From contig CAYMIA010000004.1 of assembly GCA_964390595.1 (NCBI GenBank), forward strand, positions 4,023-68,022: DNA of 64,000 nt, in the 5' to 3' direction. A program made the position numbers and the translations under genes. This stretch comes from an uncultured Gammaproteobacteria bacterium. Its GTDB lineage: Bacteria > Patescibacteriota > Microgenomatia > Daviesbacterales > UBA10151. The notes below the pieces were generated by a model. That model saw nothing but the letters and a program-made list of their open reading frames with translations. It was not told the DNA's origin and did not search any database. Positions 1 to 64,000 of the stretch are shown here, in pieces. Position 1 is the first letter of the stretch. Every line of letters starts with the position of its first letter.

Positions 1-201
1 CATCAGAGATGATTGGATTTTGAACTGGCATTTTGTAAAAATCAAACCAAGGTGAATAGCTACTGATTAATAGATCCCCAGGAAATGGGATTTTACCAAA
101 TGCGAAAAGTTTATAGTAAAGGGTAATAATAACTAAAATCAACAGAACTGGGACAATAATTTTTTGATTTTGGAATAAAAATTTTTGTAATTGATTCATC
201 T
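1..201 (-). CDS. 5'-partial membrane protein (N-terminus only; YfhO-like polytopic membrane protein family suspected); continues beyond window start
   Basis: The reverse complement of 199-201 is ATG. It translates to MNQLQKFLFQNQKIIVPVLLILVIITLYYKLFAFGKIPFPGDLLISSYSPWFDF... with one clear N-terminal TM helix. The reading frame stays open to nt 1. It is not in the ORF track because it runs off the window edge. Confidence 0.4.
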
Positions 202-240
202 TGCCTTTTAAAGTAGCTTAAAATCTTGTAATATGTTTAT

Positions 241-1146
241 GTGCAAGGGAAAATTTCCGTTGTTATTAATACTATAAACGAAGAGAAATCGATTGAGCAA
301 GCGATCCGCTCAGTTTTGGGATTTGCCGATGAGATTTTGGTTTGTGATATGCATTCTCACGACAATACTGCAGTTATCGCTAAAAAACTTGGTGCAACGG
401 TTATTTTTCATAAACCACTAAGCTTTGTTGAGCCAGCCCGCAATTTTGCTATCTCCAAAGCCTCTCATGAGTGGATTTTAGTTTTGGATCCGGATGAAGA
501 AATTCCTGAGTCACTATCCAAAGAGTTAAAAAGTATGGTAGACAGGCCAGTTGTGTCAACTTTTGTGGAGCTACCCAGAAAAAATTTAATTTTTGGTAAG
601 TGGATGAAGGCGGCGATGTGGTGGCCAGATTATAATATCCGTTTTTTTAAAGCAGGGAGTGTAGTTTGGAGTGACCGGATTCATATTCCGCCAAAGACTG
701 AAGGTCAAGGAATTAGGTTGCCTGAAGATGAGCGGTTTGCAATCATCCATCATCACTACGATAGTATCTCCCAATATCTAAAAAGACTAGACCGGTATAC
801 AGATGCTCAGGCCAGTGAGTTGCACAAAGATGGAGTCCGTTTTAAATGGGAGGATTTAATCAGCAAGCCATTGTCCGAGTTTTTGAGTAGATATTTTGCC
901 AACAGAGGATTTGAGGATGGGTTACATGGACTCTCGCTTAGCCTTTTGCAGGCTTTTTCCTTTCTAATAGTCTATCTAAAGCTTTGGGAGAAGGGTGAGT
1001 TTAAGACAGAAAATGTCACTTTAGAAGAAGTAAAGCAAGAATTTGATAAAGGTGGTAGCGAGCTTGCTTATTGGTTTAAATACGGCAATCTTTCTAAAAA
1101 CCCTCTCAAAAGATTTTTGCAGAGAGCCAAGAATAAACTACCCTAA
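241..1146 (+). CDS. family 2 glycosyltransferase (GT-A fold)
   Basis: GTG start. The N-terminus ISVVINTINEEKSIEQAIRSVLGFADEILVCDMHSHDNT and a DPDE acidic motif are typical of GT2. It is a paralog of the GT2s at 2011, 15966 and 48998 (shared WILVLDPDE / FGKWM..WPD..IRFFK segments). Confidence 0.8.
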   Translation: MQGKISVVINTINEEKSIEQAIRSVLGFADEILVCDMHSHDNTAVIAKKLGATVIFHKPLSFVEPARNFAISKASHEWILVLDPDEEIPESLSKELKSMVDRPVVSTFVELPRKNLIFGKWMKAAMWWPDYNIRFFKAGSVVWSDRIHIPPKTEGQGIRLPEDERFAIIHHHYDSISQYLKRLDRYTDAQASELHKDGVRFKWEDLISKPLSEFLSRYFANRGFEDGLHGLSLSLLQAFSFLIVYLKLWEKGEFKTENVTLEEVKQEFDKGGSELAYWFKYGNLSKNPLKRFLQRAKNKLP

Positions 1147-1152
1147 CTCTTC

Positions 1153-2010
1153 ATGAAAAAAGTTGGAGTTGTCATTTTAAATTATAAGGTCAAGGATTTA
1201 GCGATTCGGGCGGTTAAATCAGTTCTAGATTCGACATATCCAGAGCTGAGTATTATTGTCGTGGACAACAATTCAAAGGATGGTTTAGGTGAAGAGCTTA
1301 CAAAAGATCGATCAGTTATCTTTATCCAAAATTCAGCGAATCTTGGTTTTACTGGTGGAAATAATGTGGGAATAAAAAAAGCTTTAAATATGGGAGCAGA
1401 GTTGGTATTTATGTTAAACCCAGACGCTTACGTTGAAAAGGATACCATAGAAAAATTGGTCACCGGTTTGGAAAGATATCATGCGGGAATTGTTAATCCC
1501 AAGATCTATTTTGATAACTCGAAAACGATTTGGTTTGCGGGGAAAAAGTTTGATTATAAAAATGTGTTAGCCTCCCATATTGGAGTTGATAAAGAAGATC
1601 ATGGTCAATTTGATGAAGAAAAGGAGCTGGAAGATGCAACAGGTGCGGCACTCTTGATATCCAAAGAAGTTTTGGAAAAAGTGGGGGATTTTGATGACAG
1701 ATATTTTCTATATTATGAAGAAAGTGATCTGGTTTACCGGGCTAAAAAAGCTGGTTTTAAAGCTTATTATATTCCGAGCGCAGTGGTTTATCATAAGAAT
1801 GCTCAGTCAACTGGGGTGGGTTCACCGTTGCAGGATTATTTTATAACTAGAAACCGGATGCTTTTTGCATCAAAGTTTTTGCCCTTCCGAACTAGATTTG
1901 CGCTTTTCCGTGAGGCGTTAAGGCATCTCGGAAATCCTAACCGGAGACTGGCTCTGTTTGATTTTTTAACTGGTAAATTTGGTCAAGGAAGTTTTAAAAT
2001 GGATAGATAG
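1153..2010 (+). CDS. family 2 glycosyltransferase (rhamnosyltransferase-like subgroup)
   Basis: VGVVILNYK...IIVVDNNSKDG, NLGFTGGNN, a DAY motif and ATGAALLISKEVLEKVGDFDDRYFLYYEESDLVYR are all typical of GT2_2-type enzymes. Confidence 0.8.
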   Translation: MKKVGVVILNYKVKDLAIRAVKSVLDSTYPELSIIVVDNNSKDGLGEELTKDRSVIFIQNSANLGFTGGNNVGIKKALNMGAELVFMLNPDAYVEKDTIEKLVTGLERYHAGIVNPKIYFDNSKTIWFAGKKFDYKNVLASHIGVDKEDHGQFDEEKELEDATGAALLISKEVLEKVGDFDDRYFLYYEESDLVYRAKKAGFKAYYIPSAVVYHKNAQSTGVGSPLQDYFITRNRMLFASKFLPFRTRFALFREALRHLGNPNRRLALFDFLTGKFGQGSFKMDR

Positions 2011-2817
2011 ATGTTAAGTGTGATTGTTTTAACCCATAATGAAGAAGACCGGATTAAGGCTTGCCTGGAGTCTGTAAAGTGGGCTGATGAATTGATTGTC
2101 ATTGATGAAAAATCAACTGATCAAACTTTGGAGATCTCCAAAAAATATACTCCGAATGTTTTTTCCTTAAATACCACTGATTTTTCTGCTCGGCGGAATT
2201 TGGGGATGGAGAAATCAAAAGGTGATTGGGTTGTTTACATTGATGCTGACGAAAGGGTTCTGCAGCCGTTAAAGGAGGAGATTATCAAAATCACCGGTGA
2301 TGATAAAGCTAAATCAGCGTATGCGCTTGGTCGGGTAAATGTAATATTTGGTCAAGAAGTCTCTTACGGTCCATATAAAAACGATTGGATGATCCGAATG
2401 TTCAAAAGATCCGATTTTAAAACTTGGGTTGGTGAGGTTCATGAGCATGGGGAATTTTCTGGAGAGTTGGGTTATGCCAAAAATAAATTATTGCATTTAA
2501 CTCACCGGAACTTAGATCAATTTATGACCAAAGCATTAAATTGGTCGAAGATAGATGCCAAGTTAAGATTAGATTCTGGACATCCGGTAATGACAAAGTG
2601 GCGATTTATTAGAATTCTGCTAACTGAAACTTATCAGCAAGGAATAAGAAGAAGAGGATTTTTTGGAGGAACGGTTGGTTTTATTGACTCAATGCTTCAA
2701 GTAGTATTTTTCTTCTTAACCTATGTCCGGCTTTGGGAGATGCAACAGCCGAAGTCTCTAGATCTGGCTTACGATGAGTTAGATAAAAAATTAATTGAGA
2801 ATGGGTTTAATTACTGA
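2011..2817 (+). CDS. family 2 glycosyltransferase
   Basis: MLSVIVLTHNEEDRIKACLESVKWADELIVIDEKSTDQT and a YIDADE motif. It is a paralog of the 241 and 15966 genes. The start follows directly on the upstream stop. Confidence 0.8.
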   Translation: MLSVIVLTHNEEDRIKACLESVKWADELIVIDEKSTDQTLEISKKYTPNVFSLNTTDFSARRNLGMEKSKGDWVVYIDADERVLQPLKEEIIKITGDDKAKSAYALGRVNVIFGQEVSYGPYKNDWMIRMFKRSDFKTWVGEVHEHGEFSGELGYAKNKLLHLTHRNLDQFMTKALNWSKIDAKLRLDSGHPVMTKWRFIRILLTETYQQGIRRRGFFGGTVGFIDSMLQVVFFFLTYVRLWEMQQPKSLDLAYDELDKKLIENGFNY

Positions 2818-3893
2818 TGAGGTTTGCAGTTTATTCACCTTATTTAGATACCTTTGGAGGTGGCGAAAAGTATCTTTTAACGATCGCTGAGGCTTTAACT
2901 AAATTGGGGGAGGTGGATCTGTTAATTGATACAAATTTAGCTAAAAAAAATCCTAGAAAATTAAAAGAGGTGTTGGCGGACCGTTTTGCGCTGGATCTTG
3001 ATCAAGTCAATTTAGTTAATGCGCCTTTGGGGGCAGGAACCAATTTAGTTTCCAGGGCACTTTTTTTAAAGAAGTATCAGCTGCTTTTTTCTTTCACAGA
3101 TGGGAGTATTTTTTATGCTAGCGCTAAAAAAAATATCCTTCATATTCAAACTCCGCTTGCTAATATTAATTCAAAAAATATTTGGGGGAAAATTAAACTG
3201 AACAGTTGGGATTTAGTAGTTTATAATTCCCAATTTACCAAAAAAAATTCACAGAAAAATTGGTCAATTCCTGGGGAGGTAGTTTACCCGCCAGTTGATG
3301 TGGAAAAAATTGCTCCTTTGGAAAAGAAGAACTATATTTTAAATGTAGGTAGATTTTTTGGTTATCTAAAGATCAAAAAACATGAGTTAATGATTGAAGT
3401 TTTTAAAGAGTTAATTGATACGGGAGAATTAAAAGGATGGGAGTTATATTTAGTGGGGGCGGCAACTGAGGGAGACTTAGAGTATGTTGATGAGTTGAAA
3501 AAAATGGCTAAAGGCTACCCTGTTATATTTGAGGTGAATGCTTCATATGAGCAGTTAGTGAAGCTTTATGGAGAATCAAAAATTTATTGGCATGCGATGG
3601 GCTATGGTGAAGATGATCCAACTAAGATGGAGCATTTTGGAATATCCACAGTTGAGGCGATGTCTGGTGGATGTGTGCCGGTAGTGATTAATAAAGGAGG
3701 GCAACCGGAAATTGTTGAGGATAGAGTATCTGGTTTTTTGTGGGACGAGACCAATCATTTAAAAAAACAAACTTTAACTCTAGTTAAAGACAAAGATATT
3801 TGGAGAAAGTTATCGGTAGAGGCCAGAGTCCGGTCTAGGCAGTTTGGAAAAGAGCATTTTGTTAAAAAAATCTGGGAGCTAGCCAGGAAATGA
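2817..3893 (+). CDS. family 4 glycosyltransferase (GT-B fold)
   Basis: The C-terminal EHFGISTVEAMSGGCVPVVINKGGQPEIVED segment carries the E-x7-E motif of retaining GT4 enzymes. The ATG overlaps the upstream stop (TGATG). Confidence 0.8.
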   Translation: MRFAVYSPYLDTFGGGEKYLLTIAEALTKLGEVDLLIDTNLAKKNPRKLKEVLADRFALDLDQVNLVNAPLGAGTNLVSRALFLKKYQLLFSFTDGSIFYASAKKNILHIQTPLANINSKNIWGKIKLNSWDLVVYNSQFTKKNSQKNWSIPGEVVYPPVDVEKIAPLEKKNYILNVGRFFGYLKIKKHELMIEVFKELIDTGELKGWELYLVGAATEGDLEYVDELKKMAKGYPVIFEVNASYEQLVKLYGESKIYWHAMGYGEDDPTKMEHFGISTVEAMSGGCVPVVINKGGQPEIVEDRVSGFLWDETNHLKKQTLTLVKDKDIWRKLSVEARVRSRQFGKEHFVKKIWELARK

Positions 3894-5572
3894 TTAAAAA
3901 AAATTGGTTAGTCTTGGGTTTAGTGGGAATTTTTATTGCCGCCTTTGTAGTGCGGGTCTACCAGCTAAACTTAGTGCCAATTGAACTTTTTGGGGATGAA
4001 ATTGATGTTGGTTTGCAAGCCAATTCAATTTTAAAGACTGGTAATGATTATTTGGGAAATACTTTTCCGGTCATGTTTCACTCATTTGCTGAGTATCGCT
4101 TGCCCCTTTTTATCTATAGCGATGTACCTTTTGTTGCTTTATTCGGGTTAAATGAATGGGGGGTCAGGTTCTCGGGAGTTTTTTGGGGGATGCTGGGCGT
4201 TTTGGGGATGTATCTGCTTTCAAATAAATTATTGGGGCGAAAAGTTGCTCTGATATCAACGGGTCTGCTAGCTTTTTCGGCTTGGCATATTCAGCTATCA
4301 AGACAAGGTGGAGTTGAGGCGATTATGTTGCTCACTTTTCTAATTTTTGGAGTTTGGAGTTTTTTAAAAGGATTGGATAAATTTAGTTGGCTTATTATCA
4401 GCGTAGTCATCTTTGGACTGTCTTTTTATACTTATGCAATAGCCGATGTTTTAACACCACTTTTTATACTGATGCTTTTAGGTTTGTACCCAAAAAAACT
4501 AAGAGCTTTTGGACTTAGAAAAGCGGCTGTTTTACTGGTTGTTTTGGTGGTAGTTCTTTTACCTTTTATTAATATTACTTTGCAACAGAAATCAACAAAC
4601 CGTTTCTCAAATATATCTATTCTTCATGACTCTAAAATAATACAAAAGGACATCGATGATAGAAGAAAACAAGAAAATCTTTCGTTTGGTTCAGCGGTTT
4701 GGCATAATAAAGTGCTGTCTTTCACAGATTCCTTTTTGCATAATTATTTAGAAAGTTTTTCAAGCGAATTTTTGATTATCAGGGGTGATCCCAATTTACG
4801 CCAATCAGTGGCTGACCGTGGGCAGCTTTATATATTTGAGGTCATAATTTTACTTTTGGGAGTGTATTTTTTTATTGTCAACAAAAAGTTCCCGAAGCTT
4901 TTAATCGGCTGGCTGATTTTGAGTCCAATTCCTGCCGGTTTAACAATTGGTGGGGGAAATCATGCTTCAAGGTTGCTACCAATGTTAATTCCACTCGAGA
5001 TTATAGCTGCTGTTGGGTTATCTTTTTTGTTTGAGCGCAAGAGACTTAAATCTTTTCAAGTTGTCATAGCAGTTGTGGCAGTTCTAGCTTTAATTAACAT
5101 CTCCAGTTACCTTTACCGGTATTACTATGATTGGTCAAAAGATAGTTGGAAATTTTGGCAGTATGGTTATAAGCAGGCGGTAACTTATATCAAGGCCCAT
5201 GACAGCGAATACTCAAAAATTTATTTTAATAACTCATATGAGCCGGCCTTGCCCCGTTTCCTTTTTTGGTATGGATATGATCCAGCTTTATTCCAGCAGC
5301 AGTTTAAAACAGACAAACCAACAGATAACTTAGCTGATGGATTTTCTGGTTTTTCTTTAGGGGATAAATATTTCTTCGGAACTATCACAGATGCAGACAG
5401 AAGAAGAGGTTTGTCAGTCTTGCTGAAACAAAATGAACTGTATATGGTCAGCAGTAAGGATGAAGCTTTTGAGCTAAATTGGGCAAATGAGCTTCCAGTA
5501 GGTTTGCATACTCTTAAAACTGTCTTTAGTCCTTTTAACGATCCTATTTTTTATATAGTAGCAAAGCGGTAG
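3890..5572 (+). CDS. ArnT/PMT-family (GT-C, GT39/GT83-like) polyprenyl-phosphate-sugar dependent membrane glycosyltransferase
   Basis: About 12 predicted TM helices. The N-terminal loop LFGDEIDVGLQANSILKTGNDYLGNTFPVMFHSFAEYRLPLFIY matches the conserved first periplasmic loop of the ArnT/PMT family. It is a paralog of the 11049, 12625 and 14331 genes. Confidence 0.7.
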   Translation: MIKKNWLVLGLVGIFIAAFVVRVYQLNLVPIELFGDEIDVGLQANSILKTGNDYLGNTFPVMFHSFAEYRLPLFIYSDVPFVALFGLNEWGVRFSGVFWGMLGVLGMYLLSNKLLGRKVALISTGLLAFSAWHIQLSRQGGVEAIMLLTFLIFGVWSFLKGLDKFSWLIISVVIFGLSFYTYAIADVLTPLFILMLLGLYPKKLRAFGLRKAAVLLVVLVVVLLPFINITLQQKSTNRFSNISILHDSKIIQKDIDDRRKQENLSFGSAVWHNKVLSFTDSFLHNYLESFSSEFLIIRGDPNLRQSVADRGQLYIFEVIILLLGVYFFIVNKKFPKLLIGWLILSPIPAGLTIGGGNHASRLLPMLIPLEIIAAVGLSFLFERKRLKSFQVVIAVVAVLALINISSYLYRYYYDWSKDSWKFWQYGYKQAVTYIKAHDSEYSKIYFNNSYEPALPRFLFWYGYDPALFQQQFKTDKPTDNLADGFSGFSLGDKYFFGTITDADRRRGLSVLLKQNELYMVSSKDEAFELNWANELPVGLHTLKTVFSPFNDPIFYIVAKR

Positions 5573-5581: not shown

Positions 5582-6853
5582 ATGAGCAAAGCATTTATAT
5601 CAGTCCTAGTTATTGGAGTTTTAATCAGACTGCTATTTTCTTTCAGCACTTTTCATACAGACATCCGGGCATTCGATTTAGGAGGGCAGATTGTCTCCCG
5701 CGGTCACATCTGGGATTTATATGATTATTTGGCTACCCTAGATCCAAAAGATCCATTGGTTGAGGTCTATAAGTCGGATTTGTTTATCTATCCGCCAGCG
5801 ATTTATCTATTACATGGAATCTTTAGCTCAGTTTTTTCTTCGTTTTTGCCTGCTCCGCTACTGCGCCAATTTTTAGTGGATTATAGTTTGACCTTTGGAA
5901 ATATTTTAATTAACTTGCATCTGCTGTTTTTAAAGCTACCTTATTTAATATTTGATATTGGTTGTGCTTTTTTACTAGCCAAGTTATTTACTGAGAAAAA
6001 ACAACAATTGCAAGCATTTAGTTTGTGGATGTTTAATCCAGTGACTATTTACGCTAGTTTTATGATGGGTCAGTTTGATGTCATACCAACTTTTTTTGTA
6101 ATACTGTCTTTGGTAGTTTTAAAAAAAAGGTGGTTGTTTTTAAGACTCGAGCCACTTTTTGTTAGTGCAATTTGTTTGGGGGTGGGGGCAGCTTTTAAAA
6201 TTTATCCATTGTTTTTGCTGATACCTTTAGCGAGTCTAACTACAGGTTGGAAAAAAAGATTTCTGATCTTACTTTTGGGAAGCTTGCCTTATTTTTTAAG
6301 CGTTTTTCCGTATTTATTTTCAGCTGGATACAGGTCTTCGGCTTTAGTGGCGGGACAGATACTAAAAAGTTTTTACGCAGTCGTTCCGATTTCGGCTGGG
6401 GAGAGTATTATTCTGTTCATGGGAGCGATGATTTTTTTGTTTTTACTCTTTTTGATAAAGAATTTGCCTAGTTCGCCGTCTCTTGTGGAAATGGCCTGGC
6501 GGAGATTTTTTACTATTTTACTGATCTTCTTTATCTTTACCCACTTCCATCCACAATGGTTTGTGTGGATAACGCCTTTTTTGATCATTGACCTGATTGA
6601 AAGCCGGTTCAAACATTGGTTGCTTGTTGTGGGAAGTCTGACCAGCTTTATAGGGATGCTTTTTTTCTTTGACCCTTCTTTGACCGTAGGGCTTTTTAGC
6701 CCAATTTGGAGTCAGTTAGGGCAAATGCCTAGTATTTGGCAGATATTAGGTAGATCGGTTGATTACAATTTGGCGAGAAGTTTGTTGCAGACAGGTTTAG
6801 TTGGTTGTGCTCTTTATTATATTTACGGGGTGTTAACCAAAGAAAAAATCTGA
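5582..6853 (+). CDS. polytopic membrane protein, GT87/DUF2029-like putative mannosyltransferase
   Basis: A multi-TM protein. The N-terminal loop DLYDYLATLDPKDPLVEVYKSDLFIYPPAIYLLHGIF resembles the DUF2029/GT87 signature (D..Y..a......Y......YPP). Confidence 0.5.
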   Translation: MSKAFISVLVIGVLIRLLFSFSTFHTDIRAFDLGGQIVSRGHIWDLYDYLATLDPKDPLVEVYKSDLFIYPPAIYLLHGIFSSVFSSFLPAPLLRQFLVDYSLTFGNILINLHLLFLKLPYLIFDIGCAFLLAKLFTEKKQQLQAFSLWMFNPVTIYASFMMGQFDVIPTFFVILSLVVLKKRWLFLRLEPLFVSAICLGVGAAFKIYPLFLLIPLASLTTGWKKRFLILLLGSLPYFLSVFPYLFSAGYRSSALVAGQILKSFYAVVPISAGESIILFMGAMIFLFLLFLIKNLPSSPSLVEMAWRRFFTILLIFFIFTHFHPQWFVWITPFLIIDLIESRFKHWLLVVGSLTSFIGMLFFFDPSLTVGLFSPIWSQLGQMPSIWQILGRSVDYNLARSLLQTGLVGCALYYIYGVLTKEKI

Positions 6854-56081: not shown

Positions 56082-56960
56082 ATGAAAATAGCTGTTAGTA
56101 TTGTCAGTTTTAATACCAGAGATTTACTAAGAAATTGCTTGAGACAGGTGTTCCGGCAAGTGGGGGATTTTAGTTTAGATGTTTGGGTGATCGATAATGC
56201 TTCCTTAGATTTTTCAGCAGAAATGGTCGAGAAAGAGTTCTCTAAAGTTCATCTGATTACAAGTGATAAAAATAGTGGTTTTGCTCGTGGTCATAATCAA
56301 ATTTTAAAACAGATTAAGGCCGATTATGTATTAATACTCAATCCTGATACTAAAATTCCGGAAGACGCAATTACTAAAATGGTTGATTTTATGCAAAAAG
56401 AGAACTGTCAGATCGCTAGTTGCAAAATAATTGGTTTCGATAAAAAGCTCCACTCAAATGGGGGTGATCTACCATTTGGAATGGCTCTTTTTTCCTGGTT
56501 ATTTAATTTGGAAGGCTTGGGGGTAAAACCAAACTTTCACAGACAAGAGGGCGACTATTACCAAAAAGCTCGGGAAGTTGGATGGGTGGGGGGAACTTTT
56601 TTAATGGTTAAACAGGAAGTCTTTTCCAGGACCGGTTTTTTAAATGAGGATTATTTTATGTACTTTGAAGATGTGGATTTTTGTTTTAAGGCCAAGAAGG
56701 CTGGCCTGAAAGTGATGATAAATCCAGGAGTGGTAGTTGAACATGCCAGTGGGGCGAGTTCCTCAGATCCCAGACTTTTTCAATGGAAAAGTGAACTTTG
56801 GGGATTGATCCATTTTTACAAAAAAAACACTTCTGCTTTGGAGGCATTTTTGGTTAAAATTTTAGTATATAAGTCGATCATTTTAAGGATGATTGCTTTT
56901 GGTCTATTGGGGCGGCTCACGGTCGCTAAAACTTATGGAAAAGTTCTGGTCTCGATCTAA
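56082..56960 (+). CDS. family 2 glycosyltransferase (rhamnosyltransferase-like subgroup)
   Basis: MKIAVSIVSFNTRDLL, IDNASLD, GFARGHN and YFMYFEDVDFCFKAKKAG. It is a paralog of the 1153 and 59556 genes and of the GT2 half of the 6853 gene. Confidence 0.8.
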   Translation: MKIAVSIVSFNTRDLLRNCLRQVFRQVGDFSLDVWVIDNASLDFSAEMVEKEFSKVHLITSDKNSGFARGHNQILKQIKADYVLILNPDTKIPEDAITKMVDFMQKENCQIASCKIIGFDKKLHSNGGDLPFGMALFSWLFNLEGLGVKPNFHRQEGDYYQKAREVGWVGGTFLMVKQEVFSRTGFLNEDYFMYFEDVDFCFKAKKAGLKVMINPGVVVEHASGASSSDPRLFQWKSELWGLIHFYKKNTSALEAFLVKILVYKSIILRMIAFGLLGRLTVAKTYGKVLVSI

Positions 56961-58371
56961 TATCATTTTTTTTAGTTTGGTAGGGGTACTAATTTTTGTA
57001 ATTTTATACCCTAAGTTTCCGCTGATTAATATCTACGGAACATATGTAGCAGTCCGGGTTGAAGACTTGTTAATCGCCATACTTTTGTTGGCATGGTTTA
57101 TATTAAACTTGAAAAGTTTACCTAGGCTTTTAAAGCAGCCGGTCACTCAAGTGATCTTACTTTTTTGGTTTATAGGATTTTTATCGGTTGTATCGGGAAT
57201 TCTAGTGACTTTTTCAGTTACACCATCGTTAGGTTTCTTGCATTGGTTGCGCCGAATTGAGGTAATGTCTTTGTTTTTTGTAGCGGCCACTTCTTTAAAA
57301 AGTAAACAGCAACTGAAAATAGTTTTAATTAGTTTTGCCTTGGTCAGCGCGATTGTAGTTTTGTATGGGTTGGGACAAGTTTTTCTGCAATTTCCGGTGG
57401 TATCAACTAATAATAAGGAATTTTCTAAGGGGTTGATTTTAAAGTTGACTTCAGGTGCAAGGCCCAATTCGACCTTTGCTGGGCATTATGATCTGGCGGT
57501 TTTTTTGTCAATTGTGTTAATTTTTATGACCAGCTTGTTTTTTTTCATTAGAAAAATTTGGGTCAAAGCTTCGATGTTTATAGTTGGACTTTTGAGTCTC
57601 TTTTTATTAGGTCTAACAGCGGCTAGAATCTCATTTGCGGCAACGGTTTTTGGGATTGGGGGAATTTTTTGGTTGTCTGGTAAAAAGATGTTTATTATTG
57701 CGCTTTTGGCAGTGACAATTTTAACGGTTTTGACAATACCTCAATTGAGGAATAGGCTTCTAGCAACGATTACGATTAACGTTTTGCACAATACTGGTCC
57801 GACTTATCAACCAAAAGCGAGTGCCCCTTTGGTTGACCGGCGACAAATTACCTCAGAAGCGGAGTTATTAGATGTAATAAAAAAAGAGGCGACGTTGTCA
57901 GCAAGTAAAAGTGGAGTACCCGTGGATATAGTTCCGGGGGAGCCAACTAATTACAATGAGTTGGATGTGGCCAGATCTTTGAACATCCGAACTGAGGTGG
58001 AGTGGCCAAGGGCAATTGCCGCGTTTGAGAAAAATCCAGCTTTGGGGACTGGTTATTCGTCTTTAACGATTGCCACAGATAATGATATTTTAAGATCGTT
58101 TGGGGAAACAGGAGTTTTGGGGACGGTCTTTTTAGGGGCAGTTTTCCTAGTTATTTTAAGAGAGTTTTTGGGTTACTTGAAAAAGTTAAAAACTTTAAAG
58201 ATTGAGTCATCTAAATTAGAGAATGTTTATATAATTTCAGCGGTATCTGTCGTTGGGGCAGTTTTTATTACCGGGCTATTTATTGATGTTTTAGAGGCTT
58301 CGAAGATTGCGATTCTTTTTTGGATCATGCTTGGGTTTGGTTGGGCGATTGTTCGAGATTACCGGGATTAA
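56935..58371 (+). CDS. O-antigen ligase / Wzy-like polymerase family membrane protein
   Basis: The start is taken at ATG 56935 (MEKFWSRSNIIFF). About 10-12 TM helices precede a large late loop and the C-terminal NPALGTGYSSLTI...DNDILRSFGETGVLGTVFL. This is typical of Wzy_C / O-antigen ligase proteins. Confidence 0.55.
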   Translation: MEKFWSRSNIIFFSLVGVLIFVILYPKFPLINIYGTYVAVRVEDLLIAILLLAWFILNLKSLPRLLKQPVTQVILLFWFIGFLSVVSGILVTFSVTPSLGFLHWLRRIEVMSLFFVAATSLKSKQQLKIVLISFALVSAIVVLYGLGQVFLQFPVVSTNNKEFSKGLILKLTSGARPNSTFAGHYDLAVFLSIVLIFMTSLFFFIRKIWVKASMFIVGLLSLFLLGLTAARISFAATVFGIGGIFWLSGKKMFIIALLAVTILTVLTIPQLRNRLLATITINVLHNTGPTYQPKASAPLVDRRQITSEAELLDVIKKEATLSASKSGVPVDIVPGEPTNYNELDVARSLNIRTEVEWPRAIAAFEKNPALGTGYSSLTIATDNDILRSFGETGVLGTVFLGAVFLVILREFLGYLKKLKTLKIESSKLENVYIISAVSVVGAVFITGLFIDVLEASKIAILFWIMLGFGWAIVRDYRD

Positions 58372-58372
58372 T

Positions 58373-59563
58373 ATGAGAATTTTAATGTTAACTCCATATC
58401 TGCCTTATCCGCCTTCCTCGGGAGGGCAGATCCGCAGTTACAACCTGATCAAGCAACTGTCAGTTGATCACCAGATAACTCTTTGCTCACTGATAAAATC
58501 TGATGGTGACAAAAAGTATATTGATAAATTAAAACCTTTTTGCAAGGAGGTCTTTGTTTTTAAAAGAGCTGAAAAACCATGGACTTTAAAAAATATTTTA
58601 AAGACTGGCTTTTCTAGTTTCCCTTTTTTGGTGATTAGAAACTATTCTGATGAAGAAAAAAAAGCACTGCCGGAGATAATCGGCAGAGGTGATTTTGATA
58701 TTATTCATGCTGAAACTTTTTATGTGAGTCCCCATATTCCCAAGGTTGGTATTCCCGTTGTATTGGTTGACCAGACGATTGAATATGATGTTTACCGTCA
58801 TGTAGCCAAAAACTTTAAGTTTCCAGCTCTTAAGCCAATGCTTTGGGTGGATGTTTTAAAGATTAAGTATTGGGAGAGTTTTTATTGGAAGAAAGCTGCC
58901 CGGGTGGTGGCAGTTTCAGAACAAGATGCCAAGGTGATGAAAAAAATGGTACCGGGGTTAAAGGTAGCAGTTGTTCCGAATGGAGTTGGAGAAGATTTAT
59001 CTGCTGACTTGCCAAGTCATTTTAATAAGACCGCCTTGTTTATGGGCAACTATGCTTGGCTGCAAAATATTGAAGCGGCCAGAATTTTAGCTAAAGAAAT
59101 TTTCCCTCTAATTTTAAAAGAGGTACCAGATGCCAAATTGGTAATTGCTGGCCAAGATACTAACAAGATCGCTGGTTTGCAATCAGATCAAATTAACTTG
59201 TTGAATTTGTCAGCAGATGATGTAGAGGGTGTCAAGAGAGCTTACAGGGAGAGTGGGGTTTTAATTGCTCCTCTCTATGGGCCGGGGGGGACTAGACTAA
59301 AGATATTGGGGGCGATGGCTTCCCGGTTACCGGTAGTGACTACTACGGTTGGGATATCGGGGATAGATGCCATTAATGGTGAGTCAGTATTAGTAGCTGA
59401 TAAAAAAGAGGATATCGCCAAATTGGCAGTCAAACTGTTTAATGACCGGAAGCTTTATGAAAAAATTGAGAAAAATGCGAGGATGCTAGTTGATTCTAAA
59501 TATTCGTATGAGGCGATCGCCAAAAAGTTAAGTAGTGTTTATGCGGAGGTTACCCGTGGCTAA
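58373..59563 (+). CDS. family 4 glycosyltransferase
   Basis: The start is taken at ATG 58373 (MRILMLTPYLPYPPSSGGQIRSYNL), a GT4 N-terminal signature. The C-terminal GGTRLKILGAMASRLPVVTTTVGISG is an EX7E-variant region. Confidence 0.7.
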   Translation: MRILMLTPYLPYPPSSGGQIRSYNLIKQLSVDHQITLCSLIKSDGDKKYIDKLKPFCKEVFVFKRAEKPWTLKNILKTGFSSFPFLVIRNYSDEEKKALPEIIGRGDFDIIHAETFYVSPHIPKVGIPVVLVDQTIEYDVYRHVAKNFKFPALKPMLWVDVLKIKYWESFYWKKAARVVAVSEQDAKVMKKMVPGLKVAVVPNGVGEDLSADLPSHFNKTALFMGNYAWLQNIEAARILAKEIFPLILKEVPDAKLVIAGQDTNKIAGLQSDQINLLNLSADDVEGVKRAYRESGVLIAPLYGPGGTRLKILGAMASRLPVVTTTVGISGIDAINGESVLVADKKEDIAKLAVKLFNDRKLYEKIEKNARMLVDSKYSYEAIAKKLSSVYAEVTRG

Positions 59564-60425
59564 GCTGTCAATAATAGTTGTCAATTATAATGCGGGGGAT
59601 TATTTATTAGCTTGTTTGCGGTCAATTCAGCGGGTTTCAAAAGAGGTAGATCTAGTTACTTATGTTGTGGATAATGCATCAACGGATGATAGTATTGAAA
59701 AGATTAAAAAAAAGAATTTTAAAATACATTTGAAATTAAATGAGGAAAATTTGGGCTTTGGGAGAGCGAATAATCAAATTCTAAAGGAGATTACCTCGGG
59801 GTTTGTATTGTTACTGAATCCTGATACTGAGCTTGAGGAAGGAGTTTTACTAAAAATGATTCAGTTTATGGAAGAGAACGAGGATGTGGGAGCGGCCACT
59901 TGTAAAATTTTGTTAGCCAATGGCAAAGTTGATTTAACTGCTCATAGGGGATTTCCAACTCCCTGGGCGTCATTGCTTTATTTTTTAGGTGATGATAGTT
60001 TGTATCATTTATCCAAAAAAGATATGAGTCAACCTCACGAAGTTGATGCGATTTCTGGAGCTTTTTTTCTAGCTAGAACTGAAGTTTTAAAAAAAGTTAA
60101 ATACTTTGATGAAGATTACTTTATGTATGCTGAAGATATTGATCTTTGCTACAAAATTAAGCAAGCTGGTTTTAAAGTCATGTATATACCCTCAGTTAAG
60201 ATCTTGCATCATAAAGGAGTATCAAGTGGTTTAAAAAAGCAGACTCAAGAGGTTAGCTCGGCCAATTTTGAAACGAGAAGGCGTTCCTTAAATGCCTTTT
60301 ATTCAACCATGAAAATCTTTTACAAAAAGCACTACGCGGAAAAATATCCCTTCTTTGTTAATTGGCTGATTTATTTAGCGATTAACATCAAATGGTGGTT
60401 GGCTAAAAGAAAGTTAACAGTCTAG
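59556..60425 (+). CDS. family 2 glycosyltransferase (rhamnosyltransferase-like subgroup)
   Basis: A GTG start at 59556 (or the ATG at 59541) overlaps the upstream stop. KLSIIVVNYNAGDYL, VDNASTDDS, LGFGRANN and YFMYAEDIDLCYKIKQAG. Confidence 0.75.
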   Translation: MAKLSIIVVNYNAGDYLLACLRSIQRVSKEVDLVTYVVDNASTDDSIEKIKKKNFKIHLKLNEENLGFGRANNQILKEITSGFVLLLNPDTELEEGVLLKMIQFMEENEDVGAATCKILLANGKVDLTAHRGFPTPWASLLYFLGDDSLYHLSKKDMSQPHEVDAISGAFFLARTEVLKKVKYFDEDYFMYAEDIDLCYKIKQAGFKVMYIPSVKILHHKGVSSGLKKQTQEVSSANFETRRRSLNAFYSTMKIFYKKHYAEKYPFFVNWLIYLAINIKWWLAKRKLTV

Positions 60426-60426: not shown

Positions 60427-61545
60427 ATGAGGATAGGGATTGATGCTAGATTTTGGGATGAGGCGGGGGTGGGGAGGTATATTAGGAATCTGATAGCAGA
60501 ACTCAGCAAAATTGATAGTCAAAATGAGTATGTGATCTTTTTTTTAAAAAAAAATCTTGGTCAGAATTTGCCAAAAAATTTTCAGGAAGTTGAGACCAAT
60601 TTTAAATGGTATGGACTTGCTGAACAGCTTAAGTTTCCCAGAGTACTTAGGTCACATAAACTAGATTTAGTTCATTTTCCCCATTTTAATACACCTGTTT
60701 TTTATAAAGGCAGATTTGTAGTAACGATTCATGATCTAATCCATCAAAGGTTTGCTATGAAGAGGTCGACTACTCATGGAGGTTTGATATACGCCATAAA
60801 ACAGCTGGGCTACAGATTTGGATTTGCTAGTTCTCTGAAAAAATCCAAAAAAATTATTACGATCTCAGACTATGTCAAAAATGACTTAGTGAGATATTGG
60901 CAGGTTCCAGATGATAAAATCATCATTACTAAAGAGGCGGCTGAGGAGGGAATAATTCAGCTGGCTAAAAAAATGGATCAATCGCAAATCAAAAAAGTGC
61001 TAAATAAGTTTAATGTTCAGCCGCCATTTATTTACTACATTGGTAATGCTCATCCACACAAAAACGTTGAAGGTTTAATTAAAGCTTTTTTAATTTTGAG
61101 AAAAAGATACCAATATTTGCAGCTAGTTTTATCAGGGCATGATCATTATTTTTGGCAGCGGGTTAAGGATGAGTTCAGGGAAAAAAATATTATCTATACA
61201 GGCTATGTTTCTGATGAGGAAGCAGTGGCTTTTAGAAAATCGGCCCAAGTTTATGTTCAACCTTCTTTTGAAGAGGGATTTGGGATTCCGCTGCTTGAGG
61301 CATTTGCTTGTCAGGTTCCCGTCGTTTCCTCAAACGCTGGATCGCTTCCAGAAGTGGGGGCAGATGCGGCGCTTTACTTTGATCCCAAAGATACAAATGA
61401 CATGGTAGAAAAATTAGCAATGGTTTTAAACAGTCATAAATTGGCCAGAGAGTTAGTGGAAAAAGGGTTAAAGAGATACAGGCAATTTAGTTGGAAAAAA
61501 TTGGCTGAGGAGACTTTAAAAGTTTATCAGGAAAGTGTAGATTAG
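60427..61545 (+). CDS. family 4 glycosyltransferase
   Basis: QPSFEEGFGIPLLEAFACQVPVVSSNAGSLPEV. Confidence 0.75.
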   Translation: MRIGIDARFWDEAGVGRYIRNLIAELSKIDSQNEYVIFFLKKNLGQNLPKNFQEVETNFKWYGLAEQLKFPRVLRSHKLDLVHFPHFNTPVFYKGRFVVTIHDLIHQRFAMKRSTTHGGLIYAIKQLGYRFGFASSLKKSKKIITISDYVKNDLVRYWQVPDDKIIITKEAAEEGIIQLAKKMDQSQIKKVLNKFNVQPPFIYYIGNAHPHKNVEGLIKAFLILRKRYQYLQLVLSGHDHYFWQRVKDEFREKNIIYTGYVSDEEAVAFRKSAQVYVQPSFEEGFGIPLLEAFACQVPVVSSNAGSLPEVGADAALYFDPKDTNDMVEKLAMVLNSHKLARELVEKGLKRYRQFSWKKLAEETLKVYQESVD

Positions 61546-61550
61546 AGACC

Positions 61551-62615
61551 ATGAAAGTGGCTTTAGTTCATGATGACTTGATGCAATGGGGTGGAGCGGA
61601 AAGAACGTTGCTGGCTATCTCTGAGGTTTTTCCAGAAGCACCAATTTATACCTCGATTTATGACTCTAAGAACCGGTTAATTAAGAAAAAATTTGCTGAT
61701 AAAAAAATTATCACTTCTTTTGTTCAAAACTTACCAGCTTGGCGAAAGTTATACCGGGCTTACCTGCCGCTTTACCCGATCGCTTTTGAGCAATTTGATC
61801 TGTCAGACTATGATTTGGTGATCTCTCAAACAACCCGCTTTGCTAAATCGGTTATTACCAAACCAGAAACCAGACATGTTTGTTATTGTCATACTCCCCC
61901 TAGGTTTTTATGGAACTATTCCGGTGAAAAAACTGCCAGCTGGTTAAATCCAGTGCTTAGTTTGCTGCGGGTGGTTGACTTGGTTAGTAGTTTTAGAGTG
62001 GATCGCTGGTTTTCAGGATCTAGGAATGCAGCTAAGAGGATGAAAAAGGTCTACAGAGTAAATTCAGAAGTTTTATATCCATTTGTTGATCTGGACAGCT
62101 TTAAAGATGTCAAAACAGTTGAAGGAGACTACTACGTAGTTATTGCCAGATTGAATCCATATAAACGAATTGATTTAGCAGTTGAGGCGTTCAATCAGTC
62201 TGGGAAAAAATTAAAGATAATTGGGGTGGGACCAATGTTAAGCGTGTTAAAGCTAAAAGCTAAAAAAAATATTCAATTTCTCGGATCGCTTGAAGAGAAA
62301 GAATTAATTGCAGTTTTAGCTGGAAGCAGGGGGCTCTTGGTTTGTGGTGAAGAGGACTTTGGACTGACCCCCCTTGAGGCACAGGCTTTGGGAAAAGGGG
62401 TGATTGCTTATGGGAAAGGTGGAGTGAGGGAAACAGTGGTAGAGGATAAAACGGGAGTTTTTTTTGATTCTCAAGACAGTAAATCTTTAAACGGCGCGAT
62501 TGATAGGTTTGAGAAACTTCGGATTGATCCAAAAAAATGCCTGGAAAATGCGGCTTTGTTTTCTAAAGAAAAATTTCAGAACAGACTGCTTGAATTACTA
62601 GATCAAACACAGTAA
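61551..62615 (+). CDS. family 4 glycosyltransferase
   Basis: MKVALVHDDLMQWGGAERTL is a GT4 N-terminal signature. CGEEDFGLTPLEAQALGKGVIAYGKGGVRETV is the EX7E-like region. Confidence 0.75.
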   Translation: MKVALVHDDLMQWGGAERTLLAISEVFPEAPIYTSIYDSKNRLIKKKFADKKIITSFVQNLPAWRKLYRAYLPLYPIAFEQFDLSDYDLVISQTTRFAKSVITKPETRHVCYCHTPPRFLWNYSGEKTASWLNPVLSLLRVVDLVSSFRVDRWFSGSRNAAKRMKKVYRVNSEVLYPFVDLDSFKDVKTVEGDYYVVIARLNPYKRIDLAVEAFNQSGKKLKIIGVGPMLSVLKLKAKKNIQFLGSLEEKELIAVLAGSRGLLVCGEEDFGLTPLEAQALGKGVIAYGKGGVRETVVEDKTGVFFDSQDSKSLNGAIDRFEKLRIDPKKCLENAALFSKEKFQNRLLELLDQTQ

Positions 62616-62625
62616 CCTATTTATT

Positions 62626-63261
62626 ATGCTTTATGATGGTTTGAAAAGATTGATTGATATAGCATGTAGTTTGATTGGAATAATTATTCTTTCTCCGGTG
62701 ATGATTGGGATCGCGATTGCGATAAAATTGAACTCGAAAGGGCCGGTGTTTGCTGATACTCCGAAGCGGGTTGGTAAAAACGGTAAGCTTTTTAATATGT
62801 TTAAGTTCCGCTCAATGGTGGTTGGTGCGTGGGATGTGTTGCAGCAAAATCCAGAATTGTTAAAAAAATACAAGCAAAATAGCTATAAGCTGGATATTCA
62901 TGAAGATCCGAGAATTACCAAGGTAGGAAGATTTATCCGCAAAACCTCAATTGATGAGCTACCTCAGCTGTTTAATATTTTTAGGGGAGAGATGAGTATT
63001 GTTGGGCCCCGGGCGTATTATCCTTTTGAACTGGAAGAGCAGCAAAAAAAGTTTATTAACTCCAAAGAGTTTGTTAGAATCATCTTATCCTCAAAGCCTG
63101 GGTTAACAGGAGTTTGGCAGGTTTCTGGGAGATCAGAGATTAACTTCGACAAAAGAGTGGAGATGGATGCTCAATATGTTCAAAGAAGATCGATAGTTTA
63201 TGATATTTGGATTATTTTAAAGACGGTACCAGCTGTTTTGCTTGGACGTGGGGCTGTCTGA
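62626..63261 (+). CDS. small monotopic phosphoglycosyl transferase (PglC/WbaP-C-terminal-like bacterial sugar transferase; polyprenyl-phosphate hexose-1-phosphate transferase)
   Basis: At 211 aa with a single N-terminal re-entrant helix (LIGIIILSPVMIGIAIAI). KGPVFADTPKRVGKNGKLFNMFKFRSM, DELPQL and MSIVGPR match the Bac_transf signature. Confidence 0.8.
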   Translation: MLYDGLKRLIDIACSLIGIIILSPVMIGIAIAIKLNSKGPVFADTPKRVGKNGKLFNMFKFRSMVVGAWDVLQQNPELLKKYKQNSYKLDIHEDPRITKVGRFIRKTSIDELPQLFNIFRGEMSIVGPRAYYPFELEEQQKKFINSKEFVRIILSSKPGLTGVWQVSGRSEINFDKRVEMDAQYVQRRSIVYDIWIILKTVPAVLLGRGAV

Positions 63262-63275
63262 TATACTTACTTAAT

Positions 63276-64000
63276 ATGTCTTTTGTTAATTTAAACCGCC
63301 GCCTAGATAATTCAAGACCGATTAGCCGTCCGCCTAGGAAAAGGAGTTACAAAAAGTTGCTTATCCGATTAGGAGTAATTATTTTAATCTTGATTGTGGT
63401 TATTTATTTACCTCTTCGCGGAGTCTATTCCTCAGTTAAAAAGATCATGGCGGATGGCCGTAGTGCTTCAGATGGGTTTAAGAATGCCAACTTAGATGTG
63501 ATTAGGTCAAATATTAAAGATATGAAATCTCAGGCGGGAAGTTTGAATACCTCGCTTAATTTTCTAATTTGGGTTCAATTTGTGCCTTATTTTGGCGGAT
63601 TCTATGCGGATATGAGGCATTTTGCCAGAGCAGCGGAGTCGGAATTGACAGCTGGTGAAATTATTGCTGATTCGCTTGACCCTTTTAAAAATGAATTGGG
63701 GTTTACCGGTCAGCCGACTCCTGGAACTGATAAAGTGGCCCAAATTACTAAAGTTTTAGATAAAGTTATTCCGAACCTGGATAAAATTGAGCCGGAACTG
63801 CATCAGGCTTCCGCGGAGGTTGCATCGATTGATGTGAACAAATATCCAGAGAAGTGGGGAAACCGGAATATCCGTTCTTTAATTGACACTGCTAAGAACT
63901 TCATAATGGGAGCGTCCTATGCGGTAACTGATGCTAGGCCAGCTTTAGAGATCGCTCCAAGTGCGCTGGGACAGCCGAACGCCAAGACTTATTTGATCAT
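63276..64000 (+). CDS. 3'-partial membrane-anchored protein of unknown function (basic N-terminus + single TM + large extracytoplasmic domain)
   Basis: The ATG at 63276 begins MSFVNLNRRLDNSRPISRPPRKRSYKKLLIRLGVIILILIVVIYL. The reading frame stays open to the window end. Its position next to the initiating sugar transferase suggests a glycan-associated role. Confidence 0.4.
   Translation, partial: MSFVNLNRRLDNSRPISRPPRKRSYKKLLIRLGVIILILIVVIYLPLRGVYSSVKKIMADGRSASDGFKNANLDVIRSNIKDMKSQAGSLNTSLNFLIWVQFVPYFGGFYADMRHFARAAESELTAGEIIADSLDPFKNELGFTGQPTPGTDKVAQITKVLDKVIPNLDKIEPELHQASAEVASIDVNKYPEKWGNRNIRSLIDTAKNFIMGASYAVTDARPALEIAPSALGQPNAKTYLI

Follow-up and report, generated by a model that had tools for sequence, protein, structure and literature searches.

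What kind of surface glycan is built, and on which face of the membrane, by a stretch of bacterial DNA in which nearly every gene appears to serve glycan assembly? We addressed this question for the 64,000 nucleotides at positions 4,023 to 68,022 of contig CAYMIA010000004.1 (assembly GCA_964390595.1; this whole 64-kb stretch is hereafter the window), which a first-pass annotation had described as one dedicated glycosylation machinery. Cumulatively, our findings suggest that the window is likely a composite cell-envelope glycan biosynthesis region of a Microgenomates bacterium, in which lipid-linked glycans would be assembled in the cytoplasm, flipped by Wzx-type proteins and elaborated outside the membrane by GT-C glycosyltransferases.

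A six-frame list of open reading frames (ORFs) gave 53 complete ORFs and two genes cut by the window's edges, with 46 genes on the plus and 7 on the minus strand; with the listed ORFs, 98.9% of the bases are coding. All 53 proteins were scanned against Pfam and selected ones against NCBIfam, which assigned 44 genes and upheld the family assignments of the first-pass annotation. Including the sub-threshold g48 and the probable GT-C proteins g23 and g42, about 49 of the 53 genes have an assignment of the glycan-assembly type, so that the earlier claim of a window filled almost entirely by glycan genes holds, and its figure of more than 50 such genes was slightly generous. Genes outside this assignment include the TPR-like g16 and the family-less g35 and g46. 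As the annotation had also stated, nothing foreign was found in between: the window contains no tRNA gene (ARAGORN) and no Rfam RNA at gathering score, and none of the 53 complete proteins matches a transposase, integrase or housekeeping family in Pfam. Glycosyltransferase genes number 35, of which 12, about a third, are GT-C (two of the 12 only probable).

Probable extracytoplasmic GT-C glycosyltransferases

The 12 GT-C genes comprise four of the PMT_2 type, two PTPS_related, one GT87-like, three AftD-like and two probable members:

g05, 3890..5572 (+): GT-C of PMT_2 type, paralog of g09, g10 and g11 (PF13231, 47.8 bits)
g06, 5582..6853 (+): GT-C of GT87/PIG-M-like mannosyltransferase type, about 10 transmembrane segments (TMs) (Pfam matches of homologs, none direct)
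g07, 6805..9393 (+): fusion of an N-terminal GT2 to a C-terminal PTPS_related GT-C (PF00535, 82 bits; PF10131, 25.9 bits)
g08, 9356..11071 (+): GT-C of PTPS_related type (PF10131, 45 bits)
g09, 11049..12659 (+): GT-C of PMT_2 type (PF13231, 47.1 bits)
g10, 12625..14334 (+): GT-C of PMT_2/PMT type (PF13231, 44.9 bits; PF02366, 41.7 bits)
g11, 14331..15962 (+): GT-C of PMT_2 type (PF13231, 39.2 bits)
g23, 27480..29234 (-): probable GT-C, about 13 TMs, rare family (hhalign; no Pfam match)
g26, 31214..33229 (-): AftD-like GT-C, family of g37 and g34 (hhalign 99.5% to the g37 family)
g34, 39014..42316 (+): AftD-like GT-C of 1100 aa with an extra N-terminal module of about 350 aa
g37, 44939..47668 (+): AftD-like GT-C, first gene of the conserved core
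g42, 51627..52769 (+): 12-TM protein, possible small GT-C or polymerase (hhalign; no Pfam match)

Six of these proteins match Pfam GT-C families directly, and g06, g26, g34 and g37 were supported by other routes, giving ten supported and two probable (g23, g42) members. The earlier count of at least ten "GT-C/YfhO-like" proteins is therefore sustained, while the YfhO label has to be dropped, as no window protein matches PF09586. A distant relative, P0125, carried this label in precomputed form and gave no match at E <= 0.001 on rescan. In each of the 10-12 polytopic enzymes, the loop that follows TM1 holds a conserved acidic residue. Seven polytopic proteins without a Pfam match (g06, g23, g26, g34, g35, g37 and g42) yielded nothing usable from Pfam at E <= 10 or NCBIfam at E <= 1, and PDB sequence searches returned nothing for the g34 and g37 family profiles or for g06, g23 and g35 run singly.

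The clearest evidence comes from g37, which has 156 homologs, every named one from Microgenomates, the best relative among the GTDB representatives scanned being 44% identical. Its AlphaFold model, built from an 87-sequence alignment with a predicted local distance difference test score (pLDDT) of 95 and a predicted template modelling score of 0.93, consists of a GT-C module of about 11 TMs, beta domains resembling carbohydrate-binding modules (CBMs) and a C-terminal TM. The best PDB match of this model is mycobacterial AftD, followed by PglB, Pmt4, Pmt1/2, STT3B, ALG12, AftA, ArnT and AglB. Residue D31, directly after TM1, is conserved in at least 90% of the family, and the basic N-terminus would place it outside the membrane. 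The family of g34 aligns with that of g37 (hhalign 99.8%, E 4e-30; g34 residues 355-960 to g37 residues 2-557), and the two share both the acidic loop motif, in which D384 and D385 of the g34 sequence GGDD (382-385) are invariant, and the motif PGFxxFR(D/N)xxKF. Only 14 homologs of g34 were found among 5.8 billion clustered proteins; its model is poor (pLDDT 62), with AftD as the top match nonetheless. In g34 the g37-like part is preceded by an N-terminal module of about 350 aa, composed of a beta-rich domain and extra TMs. A hydropathy scan of g26, g34 and g37 gave 8-22 segments. The g37 family is also linked to the PTPS_related pair formed by g08 and the C-terminal half of g07 (hhalign 97.2%), and one g37 relative, P0121, scores 29.4 bits on PF10131, above the gathering score. 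Predicted structure assigns the GT-C fold to the g26/g34/g37 group.

By sequence, none of g26, g34 and g37 belongs to the AftD/DUF3367 family, since none has a Pfam match at E <= 10; they resemble AftD in architecture and fold only. A match of g37 residues 298-456 to NCBIfam MmpA (39 bits against a cutoff of 210) was not relied on; it spans the conserved PGFxxFRDPTKF region. MmpA is a corynebacterial membrane protein required for surface transport of trehalose lipids (PMC11175481).

The other membrane enzymes without direct matches were placed through their relatives. Many of the 568 homologs of g06, at 45-55% identity, carry GT87/DUF2029 (PF09594) and PIG-M (PF05007) domains at 27-31 bits, just above gathering, g06 itself having no match; its residues H25, D27 and D48 after TM1 are invariant. 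The C-terminal half of g07 is 35% identical to g08 over 536 aa. For g23, 280 relatives were found among 1.84 billion representatives, and a nearly invariant GDD at residues 26-28 aligns with the GDD/GDE motif of the PMT_2 and PTPS_related groups, which the family matches at hhalign probabilities of about 90%. The protein g42 matches the PMT_2 group at 91.7%, over 98 columns only. Kinship between g06 and g42, hinted at by short DNA repeats (D5 and D7), was not seen by BLASTP. Five of the 39 sampled g23 relatives (P0358, P0370, P0373, P0383 and P0403) are fused to a GT2. Fusions of GT2 to GT-C thus recur, in g07 and among g23 relatives, which suggests that donor synthesis may be physically coupled to extracytoplasmic transfer. 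Altogether, no curated family model covers three of the GT-C groups: g37 with g26 and g34, the family of g23, and the very rare 1100-aa g34 subgroup.

Given the 10-12 polytopic GT-C enzymes, their conserved acidic loop residue and the pLDDT-95 model, we regard extracytoplasmic glycosylation, already proposed in the first-pass annotation, as a sound inference. The nature of the acceptor is a separate matter. In large GT-Cs, AftD among them, the acceptor polymer is believed to be bound by carbohydrate-binding domains (PMC8035078); the CBM-like domains modelled on g37, and by homology expected on g26 and g34, therefore lean towards a polysaccharide rather than a protein acceptor. We also weighed whether the island is mainly a protein O-glycosylation system acting on S-layer proteins, pilins or other surface proteins, with the PMT-type GT-Cs as O-glycosyltransferases and g48 as an O-oligosaccharyltransferase (O-OTase) of the PglL/WsaB type. 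Four paralogous PMT_2 proteins are present, of which g10 also exceeds the gathering score of PF02366 (22.7 bits), the Wzy_C family to which g48 is nearest includes O-OTases as well as ligases, and clusters combining Wzx, glycosyltransferases, methyltransferases and acetyltransferases are known for protein glycans, for example in Tannerella. However, PMT_2 also covers ArnT and the GtlB, CsdD, GacL and GtsC proteins that glycosylate teichoic acids and wall polysaccharides (PMC8035078), g48 remains below the Pfam threshold, the window contains no S-layer or pilin genes, and the CBM-like domains of the AftD-like enzymes suggest glycan acceptors. We consider a mainly protein-directed system unlikely, keeping in mind that the two uses are compatible and not mutually exclusive.

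Cytoplasmic transferases, candidate donor synthases and flippases

The remaining genes with glycan-assembly assignments are as follows:

g01, 241..1146 (+): GT2, paralog of g39 at 37.5% identity (PF00535, 63 bits)
g02, 1153..2010 (+): GT2, weakly rhamnosyltransferase-like (PF00535, 70.7 bits)
g03, 2011..2817 (+): GT2 (PF00535, 71.6 bits)
g04, 2817..3893 (+): GT4 (PF00534, 74.9 bits)
g12, 15966..16826 (+): GT2 (PF00535, 75.4 bits)
g13, 16831..17871 (+): GT4 (PF00534, 97.8 bits)
g14, 17929..19182 (+): Wzx-type (MOP) flippase (PF01943, 77.5 bits)
g15, 19192..20004 (+): GT2 with weak ArnC/PgfS/Dol-P-hexose-transferase-like matches (PF00535, 90.6 bits)
g17, 21041..22156 (+): GT4 (PF00534, 111.5 bits)
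g18, 22156..23124 (+): short-chain dehydrogenase/reductase (SDR), GDP-L-fucose-synthase-like (PF01370, 183 bits; NF047922, 280 against a cutoff of 500)
g19, 23117..24145 (-): SDR epimerase/dehydratase/reductase (PF01370, 82 bits)
g20, 24165..25580 (+): fusion of an S-adenosylmethionine (SAM)-methyltransferase-like domain to an AglJ/Dol-P-hexose-transferase-like GT2 (PF00535, 75 bits; TIGR04182; NF041391)
g21, 25573..26493 (-): SAM methyltransferase (PF08241, 81 bits)
g22, 26500..27483 (-): SDR sugar epimerase/reductase (PF01370, 132 bits)
g24, 29290..30108 (+): GT2, paralog of g32 at 44% identity (PF00535, 103.8 bits)
g25, 30105..31247 (+): GT4 (PF00534, 112.6 bits)
g27, 33306..33839 (+): GNAT acetyltransferase (PF00583, 62 bits)
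g28, 33813..34334 (-): hexapeptide (WcaF-like) O-acetyltransferase (PF00132, 54 bits)
g29, 34335..35510 (-): UDP-GlcNAc 2-epimerase-like (PF02350, 111.7 bits; TIGR00236, 105 against a cutoff of 210)
g30, 35543..36373 (+): SAM methyltransferase (PF13489, 75 bits)
g31, 36370..37563 (+): GT4 (PF00534, 82 bits)
g32, 37560..38375 (+): GT2 (PF00535, 96.8 bits)
g33, 38378..38971 (+): hexapeptide O-acetyltransferase (PF00132, 66.7 bits)
g36, 43846..44775 (+): SAM methyltransferase (PF13489, 81.6 bits)
g38, 47681..48955 (+): Wzx-type flippase (PF01943, 65.5 bits)
g39, 48998..49768 (+): GT2 (PF00535, 73 bits)
g40, 49768..50784 (+): GT4 (PF00534, 88.8 bits)
g41, 50781..51623 (+): FkbM-type methyltransferase (PF05050, 52 bits)
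g43, 52787..53905 (+): GT4, conserved core (PF00534, 130 bits)
g44, 53902..54780 (+): GT2 (PF00535, 75 bits)
g45, 54795..55436 (+): hexapeptide O-acetyltransferase, conserved core (PF00132, 53.5 bits)
g47, 56082..56960 (+): GT2, conserved core (PF00535, 74 bits)
g48, 56893..58371 (+): Wzy/ligase-like polytopic protein, sub-threshold (PF04932, 26.0 against a gathering score of 31.7)
g49, 58307..59563 (+): GT4 (PF13692, 65.7 bits)
g50, 59535..60425 (+): GT2 (PF00535, 72 bits)
g51, 60427..61545 (+): GT4 (PF00534, 109 bits)
g52, 61551..62615 (+): GT4 (PF00534, 84 bits)
g53, 62626..63261 (+): small monotopic PglC-type polyprenyl-phosphate phosphoglycosyltransferase of 211 aa (PF02397, 207 bits; TIGR03025, 258.6 against a cutoff of 295.55)

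Most of the inventory in the first-pass annotation survives, with adjustments. For the GT2 and GT4 families, Pfam corrects the numbers from about 15 to 13 (g01, g02, g03, g07, g12, g15, g20, g24, g32, g39, g44, g47 and g50, all above gathering on PF00535) and from about 11 to ten (g04, g13, g17, g25, g31, g40, g43, g49, g51 and g52). Three SDR sugar enzymes (g18, g19 and g22) and one UDP-GlcNAc 2-epimerase-like protein (g29) were found, the protein named Fcl being better called Fcl-like (g18), as it stays below the equivalog cutoff. The five methyltransferases become four above gathering (g21, g30, g36 and g41) with the sub-threshold N-terminal domain of g20 as a fifth. The four acetyltransferases (g27 GNAT; g28, g33 and g45 hexapeptide), the two MOP-family Wzx flippases (g14 and g38) and the single PglC-like initiating transferase (g53, from its Bac_transf match) were recovered as described, and the one Wzy/ligase-like protein, g48, is a sub-threshold assignment.

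A DPM1-like lipid-sugar donor synthase had also been named, for which we find a candidate below threshold: the GT2 domain of g20 scores 112 bits on the AglJ-like TIGR04182 (cutoff 325) and 57 bits on the Dol-P-hexose-transferase-like NF041391, which makes g20 the best candidate polyprenyl-phosphate-sugar synthase in the window. Homologs of g20 at 61% identity adjoin a pair of g26-like and g37 genes in two related loci (L017 and L033).

Transmembrane glycosylation systems of Gram-positive wall polymers combine a GT-A, a flippase, which may be of Wzx type, and a GT-C (PMC8035078); the GT-C component of this scheme is present in the window through the AftD-like g26, g34 and g37 and through the six proteins with direct Pfam matches.

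Conserved core, host and integrity of the locus

In layout, the window falls into three blocks: g01-g18 on the plus strand, g19-g29 on mixed strands and g30-g53 on the plus strand. The first-pass annotation had taken start/stop overlaps to indicate very long operons. The overlaps are real in nine ATGA cases of 4 nt, three of 1 nt and one same-strand case of 8 nt, whereas those of 23-68 nt are an artefact of choosing the most upstream start and vanish with a downstream start codon. The seven minus-strand genes require at least three transcription blocks, not one operon. Motifs resembling promoters and terminators occurred as often as in shuffled sequence and therefore gave no operon boundaries. 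The only DNA repeats found in the window are short chance matches and a coding stretch with the conserved GT2 motif; paralog pairs are 30-44% identical with no DNA-level duplication, and the duplications are therefore old.

To compare gene order, all window proteins were searched by tblastn against 80 loci comprising 10 kb on either side of each g37 homolog. An order recurs: a g26-like or g34-like GT-C, g37, the Wzx g38, optionally a methyltransferase or g15-like GT2, a GT2 like g39 or g01, then g40, g43, g45, g47 and g48. Across Microgenomates, therefore, the core g37-g48 recurs as GT-C, Wzx, GT2, GT4, GT4, acetyltransferase, GT2 and Wzy-like protein. Of 67 loci, 32 have the Wzx gene as the immediate downstream neighbour of the g37 homolog, and 47 have it no more than 10 kb away. 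In Microgenomates Gr01-1014_16 the order is methyltransferase, GT4, g34 homolog, g37 homolog, Wzx, GT2. Conservation of the core extends over Woese-, Davies-, Blackburn-, Levy- and Gottesmanbacteria. In the relatives' 20-kb neighbourhoods, window proteins match a median of 40% of the sequence (8 genes), which shows that these neighbourhoods are glycan-rich too; neither the g05-g11 GT-C array nor most of g19-g29 is found beside the core there. The Gr01-1014_16 locus (L002, at 16162-16647 and 20702-21815) also has a uracil-DNA-glycosylase gene inside its glycan cluster, so such clusters are not always uninterrupted, and a toxin-antitoxin-like HEPN/NUDIX and Polbeta pair adjoins it.

These comparisons bear on whether all of the roughly 53 genes form one pathway to a single, extremely complex glycoconjugate. 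The genes adjoin one another with hardly any intergenic space and nothing unrelated between them, and g53 is the only initiating transferase. Against this, the window has Wzx twice and is split into three strand blocks, only g37-g48 recurs in relatives, these pair the core with different neighbours, and the divergence of the paralog pairs points to accretion of modules. A single pathway is thus very unlikely, and the one dedicated machinery of the first-pass annotation gives way to a composite of a conserved core and variable modules.

The host is of the low-GC, reduced-genome, Candidate Phyla Radiation (CPR)-like kind that had been proposed: all named homologs are from Woese-, Davies-, Ames-, Blackburn-, Levy- and Gottesmanbacteria or labelled Microgenomates or Patescibacteria, and GC is 0.33-0.41 without a break. 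Dozens of GTDB-representative records of metagenome-assembled genomes (L004, L008-L010, L012 and others), titled "uncultured Gammaproteobacteria" with binchicken_ or SRP designations, have a Microgenomates-type gene order round their g37 homologs. The "uncultured Gammaproteobacteria" titles look like placeholders or errors.

Considering that the source is a metagenome assembly and that glycan loci vary between strains, the window might be a chimeric mis-assembly in which glycan loci of several related populations were joined. Three runs (SRR9179559, -560 and -562) supplied five independent Logan contigs that are collinear with the window at 99.8-100%, cover 715-4127, 22912-25137, 33734-36898, 34764-36742 and 62468-64000 and span both main strand-switch junctions, not every junction. 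Over the 3.2 kb at 33734-36898, one of them (L085, SRR9179559) has 5 mismatches and 1 indel relative to the window, and another (L086, SRR9179562) is identical over 34764-36742; the former differences are minor strain variation within the locus. Together with the unbroken GC, a GC skew positive in every 2-kb bin (minus-strand gene stretches included), a tetranucleotide correlation of 0.96-0.98 among the eight 8-kb segments and the mirroring of the gene order at 35.5-58 kb in relatives, this leaves a chimera hardly credible. The all-positive skew fits a single replichore.

Five features stand apart from the genes above:

edge gene, 1..199 (-): membrane protein of which the N-terminal 66 aa lie in the window, with one TM followed by an FPGD loop; no family
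g16, 20017..21015 (+): TPR-like, every match below gathering score
g35, 42309..43859 (+): membrane protein of 516 aa, no family
g46, 55433..56026 (+): small protein of 197 aa, no family
g54, 63276..64000 (+), cut by the window end: DUF4012 membrane-anchored protein (PF13196, 85 bits on a longer copy)

The family of g54 was scored on the longer copy in an identical Logan contig (L001, 809-1945); the gene directly follows the initiating transferase g53 as the right-hand neighbour of the glycan genes. The protein g35 has one TM, an outside domain of about 330 aa and C-terminal TMs, and its gene overlaps the end of g34 by 8 nt; no match was found in Pfam, NCBIfam or PDB and no homolog in the 80 related loci. 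Conserved directly after a g45-type acetyltransferase, g46 has counterparts in two loci (L031 and L040; 52% and 37% identity). Single-sequence hhalign found no link to the GT-C groups for g35, g46, g48 or the left-edge fragment.

Proposed assembly scheme, meaning and known systems

From these families, folds, gene orders and homolog taxonomies we infer donors, acceptors, order of steps and the role of each Wzx as follows. Sugar nucleotides would be tailored by the Fcl-like SDR, the two further SDRs and the UDP-GlcNAc 2-epimerase, and the PglC-type g53 would start the glycan on polyprenyl phosphate. Soluble or monotopic GT4 and GT2 enzymes would extend it on the cytoplasmic face, with methyl- and acetyltransferases modifying it, and the two Wzx-type flippases would move the lipid-linked intermediates across the membrane. 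The Wzy-like g48 may then polymerise or ligate the glycan, and the 10-12 GT-C enzymes would elongate, branch or decorate the polymer on the outer face, using polyprenyl-phosphate-monosaccharides from membrane-associated GT2 enzymes, for which g20, g15 and the GT2 half of g07 are candidates. The core g37-g48 probably makes a lineage-wide wall-associated heteropolysaccharide, to which the g05-g11 array and the g19-g29 block appear to be variable additions.

Several observations weigh against this scheme. The assignment of g23 and g42 as GT-C depends on hhalign probabilities of about 90%, g48 is below its gathering score, and g16, g35 and g46 are left unexplained. None of the GT2 genes reaches an NCBIfam equivalog cutoff, including that for polyprenyl-phosphate-sugar synthase, so no sugar specificity can be assigned to them. 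One initiating transferase has to serve two Wzx genes; the window contains no GtrA-type flippase, and no match to Wzz/PCP, LCP, Poly_export or tyrosine kinase was found among its 53 proteins, although these could lie elsewhere in the genome. Neither Gmd nor a clear donor synthase is present in the window. With one initiator and no GtrA flippase, Wzz or LCP ligase, the pathway is incomplete within the window. All absences hold for the 64-kb window, 13 kb of the 77-kb source contig (77,122 bp) lying outside it, and the variability of the left half is read from absence within 10 kb of g37 homologs, not from whole-genome comparison. Database copies of g06, g34 and g37 with 100% identity were traced to this contig.

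The missing parts are relevant to the type of product as well. A secreted or loosely attached capsule or exopolysaccharide, serving biofilm formation or host attachment, in place of a wall-anchored polymer or lipoglycan would agree with the set of phosphoglycosyltransferase, Wzx, Wzy-like protein, glycosyltransferases and acetyltransferases, which is that of Wzx/Wzy-dependent capsule and exopolysaccharide loci, and with the lack of an LCP-type wall ligase in the window. Wzz/PCP, tyrosine kinase and export components are absent from it as well, however, and a large GT-C complement is typical of wall and lipoglycan elaboration, as in Mycobacteriales and in Gram-positive teichoic acids and wall polysaccharides (PMC8035078), and is not known as a mark of capsules. 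We therefore hold a capsule or exopolysaccharide to be distinctly unlikely and prefer the wall-associated, composite reading.

The locus type is familiar, its size and enzyme mix are unusual, and it is not a new mechanism. Unusual are the concentration of glycosyltransferase genes (35, including 12 for GT-C) within 64 kb of a presumably ~1-Mb genome, the uncurated GT-C families, the GT2::GT-C and methyltransferase::GT2 fusions and a core conserved across the class. Searches of the literature on CPR, Patescibacteria and Microgenomates glycan loci turned up neither an account of an island of this kind nor one of GT-C arrays in these organisms, an absence from the literature searched that does not prove novelty. 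CPR bacteria are thought to live attached to other cells, and their envelope chemistry is almost unknown. The locus suggests that glycosyltransferase genes can be gathered into one block of a Microgenomates genome, with extracytoplasmic GT-C enzymes making up about a third; the conserved core supplies concrete candidates for the lineage's main surface polymer, and the uncurated GT-C groups are targets for work on structure, function and annotation.

A bolder proposal is that the envelope heteropolysaccharide or lipoglycan of Microgenomates is class-wide and made largely outside the membrane, in mycobacterial style and driven by GT-C enzymes, with the conserved tandem pair of AftD-like, CBM-bearing GT-Cs beside Wzx forming a new GT-C family without a Pfam model that acts as extracytoplasmic polymerase, brancher or ligase of the polymer, and with variable GT-C arrays diversifying the surface for host recognition or phage evasion. 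We regard this as conceivable, if rather unlikely. If the class-wide, GT-C-driven reading were true, a reduced-genome symbiont would spend about 7% of a genome of ~0.8-1 Mb (estimated from relatives' chromosome sizes) on surface glycans.

Among known systems, the window is related to PTPS_related (PF10131) GT-C-type membrane proteins by one member (g08), its paralog in the C-terminal half of g07 and the linked g37 family, whereas CBM-like domains add about 450 aa to g26, g34 and g37, which also have a C-terminal TM anchor. With Wzx/Wzy loci for O-antigen, capsule, secondary wall polysaccharide or S-layer glycan, it shares a tightly packed set of a PglC/WbaP-type initiator, MOP flippases, GT2 and GT4 enzymes, a Wzy_C-like protein, enzymes for O-acetylation and methylation, and sugar-nucleotide enzymes. 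Its 64 kb and 53 genes exceed their usual size, and it differs further in that 12 of its 35 glycosyltransferase genes are GT-C and that no chain-length regulator, ligase or exporter was recognised in it. Like the Gram-positive CsbB/GtcA/YfhO, GacI/J/K/L, CsdAB-EF and GtsABC systems, it has PMT_2-type GT-Cs and would follow the logic of GT-A, flippase and GT-C. A Wzx-type flippase can serve there, as GacK does, and the conserved g37-g38-g39 (GT-C, Wzx, GT2) fits. Those systems usually comprise one to three scattered GT-A/GT-C pairs, whereas the window clusters 10-12 GT-Cs, without a GtrA-type flippase or YfhO Pfam match and with a sub-threshold donor synthase.

The arabinogalactan and lipoarabinomannan (LAM) machinery of Mycobacteriales (AftA-D, EmbA-C, PimE/GT87 and Ppm1) differs in several respects: Pfam gave no match to DUF3367, Emb or an arabinosyltransferase for g26, g34 or g37, no genes for decaprenyl-phosphate-arabinose synthesis were seen in the window, the window's GT-Cs are accompanied by Wzx, a Wzy-like protein and an initiator of the PglC type, and its host is a monoderm-like CPR bacterium, not an actinobacterium. 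In both, many GT-Cs act, or in the window would act, outside the membrane on one envelope polymer, and the window likewise has a GT87-type protein (g06) and large GT-Cs with carbohydrate-binding domains; g07, a GT2 donor synthase candidate fused to a membrane domain, is loosely comparable to the two-domain Ppm1. For the richness in GT-C enzymes, the Mycobacteriales machinery is the nearest analogy.

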